A stretch of 64,000 bases of DNA from NCBI GenBank assembly GCA_944332815.1, contig CALVKQ010000004.1, forward strand, positions 69,319 through 133,318, read 5' to 3'. Source of the DNA: an uncultured Clostridia bacterium (GTDB lineage Bacteria > Bacillota > Clostridia > Christensenellales > CAG-917). The position numbers were made by a program, and so were the translations under genes. The notes below the pieces were generated by a model that saw only the letters and a program-made list of their open reading frames with translations, searched no databases and was not told where the DNA came from. Numbering within the stretch: position 1 is the stretch's first letter; each line of letters begins with the position of its first letter. Positions 10,381 through 33,760 of this stretch are shown piece by piece.

Positions 10381-10760
10381 AATTTCCGTAAATAAAATTT
10401 CCCCGCATCGGGGAGGAGGAGCTGCAGTCCCCTGACATGGGAATATTGTTCCCCCACCTTCCCTTCGGGCTTTCCTCCCCCACTCGGTAAGAGTTCAGCC
10501 CCCCTAAAATGCGGGATATACTTTCCGTCCATTTTGATAAAGTTTTAGTATCGCATAGAGATAATCAAGCGGCGAACAGAATAAACTAAACATCGCTCGC
10601 GGGGAGAGGAAGGCGACTCGACGCGCACGGCGCCCGTGTCTACTTAATTATCCGTCTGGCTTGCGAGGTCGCATTTCGCGCCGCGGCGTTCACGCGGCGG
10701 CAACGCCGCCTGTGAACGCTTGGGTGAGCGGCGCGTAATTCCGTCTTCGAAAGAGAAACG
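10381..10760 (-). repeat. Partial inverted copy of the modular hairpin-repeat family also seen at 28336-29305 and 39807-40644 (G-rich module plus the ACGCGCCGC hairpin module; lacks the 250-nt core)
   Basis: The reverse complement contains ttcgaagacggaattACGCGCCGCtcacccaa...GCGGCGCG and ccgagtgggggagga..cccgaagggaaggtgggggaacaatattcccatgtcaggggactgc. Both match modules in the other two loci. Confidence 0.7.
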
Positions 10761-10813
10761 TCGCGTTCGAGGCGAACGACCGTATTTTTGCGAGGCGAAG
10801 AGCAGGCGCAGGT

Positions 10814-11093
10814 ATGCCAGACCGGAATAATACGAACCGGGTCCTGCGCCGCCGATTTCCGCATGAACCGCGTCATTCGCCTTGCTAATACGATGGGGTA
10901 TTAGCGGCACCGACTTCCTTGTTCAATCAAAAATCGGCTGGCGCAGAACTGCTCGCACCTCAGAGCAAGAGATTTTCGGATGATTGTGTACAGGCGGAAC
11001 GCAGGCAATAGTATACATATTGGCAAGGTTCGGCTGTGCAAAAGCGCCGAAAAGAATTGCTCCGAGGCAGGTTCGTATAATTCCGGTCTGGCA
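10814..11093 (+). mobile_element. MITE-like non-autonomous element, copy 1 (280 bp, 25-nt terminal inverted repeats, no ORF)
   Basis: Left end ATGCCAGACCGGAATAATACGAACC; right end GGTTCGTATAATTCCGGTCTGGCAT. It aligns along its whole length with 33480..33760. Confidence 0.7.
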
Positions 11094-11103
11094 TAAAAGC
11101 AAG

Positions 11104-11128
11104 AAACCCACGGGGGTGCCGTGGGTTT
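11104..11128. terminator. Hairpin terminator downstream of the ABC gene at 11156..14485
   Basis: aaacccacgg-gggtg-ccgtgggttt with T-rich flanks on both strands. Confidence 0.55.
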
Positions 11129-32294: not shown

Positions 32295-32555
32295 ATGGAG
32301 TTTGACCAAACCAAAAAAATCGAAGTCGAAGTCAGCGAAAACGTCATAGCCGAAAACGAGGTCGGAGTGCGCAGGGAGAAAAAGTCCGGGGTGCGTTCCT
32401 TCCTGAAAAAGGTGGATCCTCTCGATCTCGCACTGGTGCCCGTGGTGATAGGGGTGTTCATCTCACTGGGCTTCCTGTTCGCCGGGCTGCTCGGGCAGAG
32501 CTCCGTCAGCGCGGCGGTATCCGAGGTGGGACAGGCGGCGGCTGCCGTGCTGTGA
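32295..32555 (+). CDS. Small single-pass membrane protein, translationally coupled to the M50 protease gene
   Basis: 86 aa with TM segment LALVPVVIGVFISLGFLFAGLL. Its stop overlaps the next start (ATG at 32552, TGA at 32553..32555). Confidence 0.55.
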   Translation: MEFDQTKKIEVEVSENVIAENEVGVRREKKSGVRSFLKKVDPLDLALVPVVIGVFISLGFLFAGLLGQSSVSAAVSEVGQAAAAVL

Positions 32556-33496
32556 TGCGCATCTCCGTCCATCCGCTCTTTTACGCGCTTGCCGTGCTGC
32601 TCGTGTTGTTCGGGCAGGCGGCGGCGTTCGTCTGGACTTTTGTCGCCGTATGCCTGCACGAACTGGGGCACGCGGCGGCGGCGCGTCTTCGCGGTTACGT
32701 CCCAAAGACGCTCACTCTCATGCCGTACGGCGCGATGATGAGTGCGGAGGAAGAGATGGACGGGCGCTCCTGCGTGCTGGTGGGGCTCGCCGGTCCTGCC
32801 GCCAATCTGCTTTGCGCCGCCCTGATACTCGCGTTGTGGTGGGTCTTTCCTGCCGCATATCCTTTCACGCGCGTGTTTTTGGCAGCCAATCTCGCGATCG
32901 CGCTTTTCAATCTGCTCCCCGTCTATCCGCTGGACGGTTCCAGAGTGCTGACGGGGCTTGCGTCCAACCGCATGAAAGCCGTTAAACGTATGCAGGCGGC
33001 AGGCATCGCGGTGAGCGTGGCGCTCTTTGTCCTGTTCATCATTTCCTTCATCATGAAAGCCGCCGCGTTTACCCTCGGGATAACGGCGGTATTCCTGTTT
33101 TCGGGGGCGGCGTTCGGGGCGAAGCGCGACACCTATGCGAGCGTGCTCGCGGCAGGTTGCAAAAACTACCGCGCAGGCGTGTGCGAACGGAGCGTGATAG
33201 TGAGTGCGGACACCCCTCTCGTCAGATTGTTCGGGTACGTGGACGGGCGCAACGTCACGCGTTTCAGAGTGGTGGAGGAACACGCCGACGGCGCCCCTCC
33301 CGACGAGGTATGCGTGCTCACGGAAGGAGAATTGCGCGGCATCGCGAAAGAGGGCAGACTTTCGCGCACCTTGCGCGAATGCGTCGCGGCAGGGAAGGGC
33401 TCCTCGCCCGAACTCCCTCCGTCCGCCATCTCCCTTTCCGAAAACGATGGCGGAGCGAACGATGCCGACCATGTCCGGCATGCCAGACCGAAATAA
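32552..33496 (+). CDS. M50 site-2 metalloprotease, SpoIVFB-like
   Basis: HExxH (LHELGHAAAA) and the NLLPVYPLDGSRV motif. Its position downstream of min genes matches Bacillus/Clostridium spoIVF. The last 5 codons and the stop lie inside the MITE-like element. Confidence 0.8.
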   Translation: MMRISVHPLFYALAVLLVLFGQAAAFVWTFVAVCLHELGHAAAARLRGYVPKTLTLMPYGAMMSAEEEMDGRSCVLVGLAGPAANLLCAALILALWWVFPAAYPFTRVFLAANLAIALFNLLPVYPLDGSRVLTGLASNRMKAVKRMQAAGIAVSVALFVLFIISFIMKAAAFTLGITAVFLFSGAAFGAKRDTYASVLAAGCKNYRAGVCERSVIVSADTPLVRLFGYVDGRNVTRFRVVEEHADGAPPDEVCVLTEGELRGIAKEGRLSRTLRECVAAGKGSSPELPPSAISLSENDGGANDADHVRHARPK

Positions 33497-33760
33497 TACG
33501 AACCAGGTTCAGCGCCGCCGATTTCCGCCTGAACCGCGTCATTCGCCTTGCTAATACAGTCAAGTATTAGCTGCAGCGACTTCCTTGCTCAGCCAAAAAT
33601 CGGCGGGCGCGGAACTGCTCGCACCTCAGAGCAAAAGATTTTCGGATGATGTTGCACGGGCGGAACGCAGGCAATAGTATATATATTGGCAAGGTTCGGC
33701 TGTGCAAAAGCGCCGAAAAGAATTGCTCCGAGGCTGGTTCGTATTATTCCGGTCTGGCAT
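33480..33760 (+). mobile_element. MITE-like non-autonomous element, copy 2 (281 bp)
   Basis: ATGCCAGACCGAAATAATACGAACC ... GGTTCGTATTATTCCGGTCTGGCAT; co-linear with 10814..11093. Confidence 0.7.

Follow-up and report, generated by a model that had tools for sequence, protein, structure and literature searches.

Short, non-coding, multi-copy elements bounded by terminal inverted repeats of ~25 nt are known from several bacterial groups, e.g. the Correia elements of Neisseria (NEMIS/CREE), the ERIC elements of enterobacteria and the RUP elements of Streptococcus pneumoniae. Such elements occupy intergenic or gene-end sites in either orientation, fold into long hairpins, are accompanied by a 2-bp duplication within an AT-rich target, and can supply the ends of genes. 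Transposons of the IS630/Tc1-mariner type duplicate TA; for the Correia elements, we know of no mobilising enzyme that has been identified. An element that shares each of these general properties occurs twice in the window (i.e. the whole 64,000-nt stretch of DNA analysed here), which lies on contig C4 of a 1.63-Mb genome (57% G+C, 17 contigs, 97% complete). A sequence-only reading of the window had allowed two interpretations, a non-autonomous transposon or a structured RNA gene. We conclude with high confidence in favour of the former, i.e. a non-autonomous mobile DNA element of MITE type with 25-nt terminal inverted repeats, as the element is multi-copy, dispersed, present or absent at three orthologous sites and represented by near-identical young copies. 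It displays the characters by which bacterial MITEs are recognised: it is short with terminal repeats, has many dispersed copies, is non-coding, and shows insertion polymorphism together with a target-site duplication.

Structure, insertion sites and distribution of the element

The two window copies, A and B (Table 1), align over their full length without gaps at 91% identity (E = 2e-110), in agreement with the co-linearity first reported for them. The start ATGCCAGACCG(G/A)AATAATACGAACC and an end formed by its reverse complement, as originally described, are seen in both copies, with one mismatch between the arms in copy A and one in copy B. Of the span initially given for copy A (10814-11093, 280 bp) the start is correct and the end is not, the final T lying at 11094, so that the element measures 281 bp. 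It is thus under ~600 bp, most copies have 0-1 mismatch between their 25-nt repeats, and its body comprises 277 bp starting GCCAGAC. The count of two copies is right for the window and does not extend to the genome, in which 18 full-length copies (14 of 281 bp, three of 324 bp and one of 517 bp) and ~25 fragments are distributed across nine contigs; the 324- and 517-bp forms contain nested REP-like inserts of ~45 nt, and three contig ends break within copies of the element.

Table 1. Features of the window copies and their neighbours, alleles at the polymorphic sites, and the RAYT-like gene; positions are those of the window unless a contig is named.
Feature	Position	Strand	Remarks
MITE copy A, 281 bp	10814..11094	+	old; 87-91% identical to the genome's other copies
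Left terminal inverted repeat, copy A	10814..10838	+	ATGCCAGACCGGAATAATACGAACC; first AT is the duplicated target dinucleotide
Internal hairpin domain 1	10847..10943 (element positions 34-130)	+	outer stem kept, with different sequence in diverged subfamilies
Internal hairpin domain 2	10959..11066 (element positions 146-253)	+	covarying stems; conserved unpaired blocks GATTTTCGGATGAT, GAACGCAG, AAAAGCGCCGAAAAG
Right terminal inverted repeat, copy A	11070..11094	+	GGTTCGTATAATTCCGGTCTGGCAT; one mismatch to left arm
Intrinsic-terminator-like hairpin of neighbouring minus-strand gene	11104..11128	-	10 bp from right end of copy A; outside element
M50-peptidase-like ORF upstream of copy B	32552..33496	+	3' end enters copy B by 17 nt
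MITE copy B, 281 bp	33480..33760	+	polymorphic insertion; empty site GTCCGGC-AT-GGGGG in other strains of the species
Left terminal inverted repeat, copy B	33480..33504	+	gives upstream gene its last four codons (ARPK) and TAA stop
Right terminal inverted repeat, copy B	33736..33760	+	
Site upstream of SpoU methylase			filled GTGTGCT-ATGCC...GGCAT-AATATGC; empty GTGTGCTATAATATGC
Site between UDG and DUF896			filled CTTGTT-ATGCC...GGCAT-AGGTGG; empty CTTGTTATAGGTGG
Site of window copy B			filled GTCCGGC-ATGCC...GGCAT-(T/G)GGGG; empty GTCCGGCATGGGGG
RAYT-like Y1_Tnp gene	C1:120235-121071 (locus L172 1402-2238)		single copy; C-terminal HTH

Comparison with related strains, a check proposed when the element was first noticed, yielded exact empty and filled alleles at three loci, the empty allele at the copy B site being present on five contigs. 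The junctions were read from contigs that encode an exactly identical flanking protein, i.e. from other strains of the same species; cross-species comparisons located empty sites, but divergence of the intergenic DNA prevented the junctions from being resolved to the base. At all three loci a single AT is found in the empty allele and an AT at each end of the insert in the filled allele, and the claim that there is no obvious target-site duplication accordingly falls, this AT being the duplication. Insertion doubles AT, not TA: the empty sites read TATA, TATA and CATG, with only the AT doubled, whereas under an IS630-like TA duplication the empty sites should be 2 nt shorter than they are, and that model fails at the third site, which has no TA. 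The alleles fit a 2-bp staggered cut of the target, although placement of a 279-bp piece with no duplication is formally an equally compatible description. The empty alleles are unlikely to be excision scars; more distant strains carry GC or GT in place of AT at the UDG locus with equal spacing, and the AT allele at this locus therefore represents the pre-insertion state.

A target consensus drawn from 53 distinct copies is roughly palindromic, with the doubled AT usually lying within Y-AT-R and often within TATA: 48 copies have T or C at -1 and 47 have A or G at +1, there is a preference for S at -2 and +2, and T is over-represented at -6, as is A at +6. The one asymmetry is a G at -3, in 35 of the 53. 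At the SpoU site, contigs L164 and L162 are alike in the copy and its right flank and wholly different in the left flank, which suggests that copies have recombined or rearranged, or that the repeat gave rise to a chimeric assembly.

The element has been active recently, as identical copies are present in the genome and the set of filled sites varies among strains of the same species. Identity is 99-100% among several copies, those at C1:280558 and C2:301930 being the same, and the window copies represent older lineages with 87-92% identity to the remaining copies. With respect to predicted genes, all copies in the genome are intergenic or overlap just the last codons of a gene, in either orientation. 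The element is carried by seven of the 14 other species of the genus and by one other genus of the family, in which the form is diverged and ends ATACCAGAC; searches of 16 further families of the order recovered no copy. The public genome collection names as hosts gut MAGs of Clostridia, listed as 'uncultured Clostridia', 'uncultured Christensenella sp.', Ca. Limadaptatus, Ca. Ornithoclostridium and 'Acidiphilium sp. CAG:727'.

Internal deletions erode old copies, in the extreme to stumps of 36 nt. Decay products observed at occupied sites include an internally deleted copy of 187 bp (L154) and a 15-nt remnant (L189), and the 36-nt stump ATGCCGGACCGGAATAATACGAACCGGGTCCGGCAT recurs at many loci. 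In stumps of 29-41 nt the left repeat runs directly into the final ~11 nt of the right one, usually as ATGCC..ACGAACCGGGTCCGGCAT; such stumps lie at C1:223860, C8:64784 and C9:51431 in this genome and at loci L052, L085, L100, L104 and L139. The stump looks like a product of deletion at a microhomology (CCGG), but could instead be a minimal mobile form.

Insertion of copy B has altered its neighbour, in that the M50-peptidase-like protein ends ...DADHVRHARPK when the copy is present and ...DADHVRHGGKAVKPRGKTRRFRHG when it is not, the tail GGKAVKPRGKTRRFRHG replacing ARPK in empty-site strains. The window contains no transposase, as initially noted, and the only recombinase-like matches of the genome are on other contigs. 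Abutting copy A on its left, positions 10420-10775 belong to another repeat family of ~330 bp, with at least 25 copies of 85-91% identity in a related species (G013), further members in G009, G005 and G012, and a partial copy at C12:23818-24037 of this genome.

Origin of the terminal repeats and candidate mobilisers

Bases 4-25 of the terminal repeat, CCAGACCGGAATAATACGAACC, match the 3' CCA of tRNA-Leu, its trailer and the 5' arm of the following terminator hairpin at 22 of 22 positions. The identity is seen in several element-carrying species and is located in this genome at C6:24831-24880, downstream of tRNA-Leu(CAG). Related hairpins follow tRNA-Ser genes. In an element-free species this same hairpin, identical in its loop, follows tRNA-Leu, with a different outer trailer (CCATACAAG...), and another family of the order has a similar one downstream of tRNA-Leu; the hairpin therefore predates the element. 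From this sequence identity, the terminal repeat was most likely derived by copying the tRNA-Leu 3' end and terminator region. Elsewhere in the genome, at C2:48824-49800 (locus L010), tRNA-Ser(TGA) is followed by two tandem units of ~290 nt, each ending in the tRNA-3'-end-like ...CCCTCCGCCA and separated from one another by a MITE copy, with a GAATAATACGAAC hairpin terminator at the end of the array; one further unit of this kind is present at C3:89528-89780, and the units have no match in Rfam.

In the MITE reading, an enzyme recognising the terminal repeats would move the element in trans. Pairs of these repeats never lie more than 520 bp apart in this genome, in the 14 relatives searched or in ~260 loci taken from genome and metagenome collections; the sole longer forms are of 324, ~430 (L050), 467 and 517 bp. 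The search for an IS with matching terminal inverted repeats, suggested at the outset, likewise returned none from these 15 genomes and ~260 loci. Viral contigs, plasmids and phages gave no match to a partner, and literature searches for a described family found nothing. Matches to DDE_3 (IS630), DDE_Tnp_1 (IS4/IS5), rve (IS3/IS21/IS30/IS481) and IS110 were absent from all 15 genomes searched in the genus, IS1595 was limited to an element-free species amongst them, and this genome gave no match to IS256, ISL3 or TnpB. A MITE linked to TA-duplicating IS630/Tc1-mariner transposons can be dismissed, as only AT is doubled and PF13358 scores in none of the 15 genomes, whilst control genomes do score.

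The lack of an autonomous partner, and an AT duplication that is not the signature of classic MITE mobilisers, both count against the MITE reading. However, all of these genomes are metagenome assemblies, from which multi-copy IS often drop out, so that absence is weak evidence either way and an unassembled IS remains the simplest explanation for the missing mobiliser. Several short repeat families are abundant across the 15 genomes of the genus despite the lack of matches to IS630, IS4/IS5, rve and IS110, a pattern that may be biologically real or may stem from IS having been lost from metagenome bins. This small genome is itself unusually rich in short non-coding repeats: most of its contig ends (e.g. 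C7:26661-27036, the C12 3' end and the C4 3' end) lie in tandem arrays with periods of ~47 and ~69 bp or in further dispersed repeats of ~290 bp, and the last 300 bp of C12 are present in at least six copies at 92-96% identity.

We also entertain, as an unlikely proposal, that the mover is not a classical DDE enzyme, and that a host-encoded or unrecognised enzyme (HUH/RAYT-like, a serine recombinase, or new) acts on folded ends derived from the tRNA and terminator. Two specific versions can be formulated, and a third route, derivation from IS200/IS605, is rejected. Palindrome-associated elements (PATE) of that origin have no terminal inverted repeats, carry separate subterminal hairpins and insert with strand bias 3' of a fixed tetranucleotide; the present element has long terminal repeats and no strand bias (11 vs 7), in a genome where TnpB was not found.

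In the first version, which we consider improbable, the element is a REPIN-like hairpin moved as single-stranded DNA by the single-copy HUH tyrosine transposase of the genome (RAYT-like Y1_Tnp, 278 aa). The closing stem would join the ends, one strand would be cut after AT at each end and pasted after another AT, and there would be no true duplication; such peel-and-paste would account for the lone AT of the empty allele and for the AT flanking the insert on either side in the filled one. Y1_Tnp is the only transposase family matched in the genome apart from serine and tyrosine recombinases, eight other families having been searched without a match. Across the taxonomic family, 8 of 9 element-carrying and 3 of 16 element-free genomes encode it, although related genomes are non-independent samples, and it is absent from three more distant carriers and from G011. 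The left flank of the target (G at -3, G/C at -2, T/C at -1) resembles the 3' end of the element, GGCAT, and conservation of the fold on a single strand is also as expected. The right flank is, however, constrained as well (A at +1 in 39 of 53 copies), making the target largely symmetric, and there is no bias with respect to the replication strand, a test that symmetric ends would blunt. In none of 10 genomes does a terminal repeat of the element lie near the RAYT-like gene, which is instead flanked by unrelated 105-nt palindromes of its own, and each terminal repeat is not itself a hairpin, unlike a REP unit. With a loose co-occurrence and no physical link, we do not accept this gene as the mobiliser, nor the element as a member of the REP/REPIN-RAYT systems. 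The palindromes bracketing the gene (L172 1296-1400 and 2253-2357) correspond to a REPtron layout.

The second version, to which we attach only a very slight probability, invokes a site-specific recombinase, most likely of the serine type, for which AT is a 2-bp crossover dinucleotide common to a circular junction (...TCTGGC-AT-GCCAGA...) and to loosely matching targets, with the tRNA-Leu 3' end as ancestral attachment site. A 2-bp 'duplication' in a roughly palindromic target is the form that such a crossover takes in Tn4451/Tn5397; joined ends would create a perfect 50-bp palindromic site, and a tRNA 3' end region is a usual target of integrases. The genome contains eight large-serine-recombinase domain matches in 1.6 Mb and three tyrosine recombinases. 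The serine recombinases nevertheless do not track the element, three carrier genomes having none and one MITE-free genome having seven. The flanks, moreover, share little besides Y-AT-R, and a palindromic crossover dinucleotide would give no directionality.

The only multi-copy proteins of at least 150 aa in this genome belong to modules that each comprise a rolling-circle Rep (REP_ORF2-G2P) and a large serine recombinase, located at C2:222436-225067, C9:51570-54192 and C3:155339-158196 and 70-80% identical to one another. The C2 module ends at a terminator hairpin adjoining a tRNA 3' end. As mobilisers of the element, and hence as support for the recombinase route, the modules are rejected: they have other ends, the adjacent tRNA is a different one, and their recombinases do not track the element. 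A repeat-like sequence 115 bp from one module proved to be a 36-nt stump of a copy.

A conserved fold in a non-coding interior

The interior of the element is non-coding. The sequence-only reading was mistaken that no ORF survives in both copies, as a 46-codon TTG-started frame is open in both on the minus strand (10901-11041 in copy A and 33567-33707 in copy B); this frame is interrupted by stops in every diverged subfamily and shows non-conservative changes, and we reject it as coding. The subfamilies are just ~55% identical yet collinear, with short conserved islands.

A consensus fold was derived from 13 diverse copies and consists of a 27-bp closing stem, made by both terminal repeats, and two hairpin domains of ~100 nt each, with 94.6% of cells paired. 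Both partners have changed in 32 of 70 pairs, compared with 3-9 after sliding the partners by 1-3 columns, and the observed covariation was reached by none of 500 shuffles, values to be read with the caveat that the fold was derived from the same sequences and that most double changes trace to one deep subfamily split. Terminal repeats covary between subfamilies (CAGACAGG/CCTGTCTG, CGGACCGG/CCGGTCCG, CGGAGCGG/CCGCTCCG and ATA.../...TAT), and folding of the DNA gives a z-score of -9, alike for both strands. The structured interior proposed from the window is thereby borne out, the fold being kept through compensatory changes. This extends to the small hairpin within domain 1 with stem GCTAATAC (10884-10891) / GTATTAGC (10898-10905) and a loop that differs between the window copies: across the 14 full copies of the genome the stem of this hairpin (10884-10905) is invariant, and nowhere does the family vary more than in the loop. 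The pairing of CCTTGCTAAT with ATTGGCAAGG across the element is found in the main subfamily and does not carry over to the others (69% of cells paired amongst the 13 diverse copies).

We read the fold as mattering to the element itself, where it may serve the transposition reaction, i.e. as substrate, or host tolerance of the element, and not as an RNA gene. That the locus is primarily a structured non-coding RNA gene or cis-acting RNA module, its spread being secondary, is the least probable of the readings considered here: covarying stems and unpaired blocks conserved across subfamilies of ~55% identity speak for it, as do G-U pairs (~28 cells) in excess of A-C mismatches (~10) on the strand as oriented, but the search against Rfam, another of the checks first proposed, matched no family (none at the gathering score for the window and none even at E <= 10 for the element), copy A and its immediate surroundings gave no sigma-70-type promoter-like site, copies show no preferred orientation with respect to the downstream gene (10 same, 8 opposite) or to GC skew or replication strand (11 vs 7), copies are dispensable, being present or absent among strains, and both strands fold equally.

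Tandem arrays with a period of 157-158 bp are found at contig ends in two related species (G013:C51:1-453, L284; G012:C6:105937-106388, L283), and their unit holds the core of domain 2 (GCAAGAGATTTTCG...GACGCAGGCAATAGTATACATATTG..AAAAAGCGC). As this core exists in separate tandem arrays, the element is a mosaic of modules that also occur alone.

Significance and relation to known elements

For annotation of this group of gut Clostridia, copies of the element explain odd intergenic conservation, contig breaks, altered gene 3' ends and strain differences. For the biology of mobile elements the family offers a clear-cut example of recent MITE activity and combines four unusual features, i.e. a doubled AT, a fold kept by compensatory changes, ends that correspond to a tRNA-Leu trailer, and no recognisable transposase in the host genus as searched. 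Should the partner be genuinely missing and not simply unassembled, the family would indicate that MITEs can be moved by an unknown mechanism. If the non-DDE proposal were true, the fold would be part of the transposition substrate and the family would constitute a new mechanistic class of AT-targeting bacterial MITE, in a genus whose sequenced genomes are otherwise without transposases.

Two groups of known systems share particular traits with the element. Like the repeats of the REP/REPIN-RAYT systems it is non-coding, palindromic and dispersed, its host genome has a single-copy Y1 HUH gene, it has two 25-nt inverted units that close a hairpin, and it shows a loose co-occurrence with Y1 within the taxonomic family. 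It differs from REPINs in that its 25-nt unit is not a hairpin and has no internal palindrome, and in a spacer of 230 nt instead of tens of nt, and from the REP/RAYT arrangement in that the Y1 gene is flanked by a different repeat and is lacking in three carriers of the element. With Tn4451/Tn5397 and IS607 it has in common a dinucleotide seen twice, at the two junctions, when the site is filled and once when it is empty, and Clostridia as hosts; those elements, however, are kilobases long, use a non-palindromic dinucleotide (GA) and carry their own recombinase, and no recombinase tracks the present element.

A MITE is an ordinary kind of element, and it is the AT target that is unusual. In its behaviour the element is closest to the Correia, ERIC and RUP elements, to which it has no sequence similarity. 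RUP is linked to IS630-Spn1, whereas no IS630-type transposase was found in any genome of the genus that was searched. The element further departs from all three in doubling AT and not TA, the copy B site having no TA, in being about twice as long, in possessing two internal hairpin domains that are kept by covariation, and in a terminal repeat that equals a tRNA-Leu trailer.
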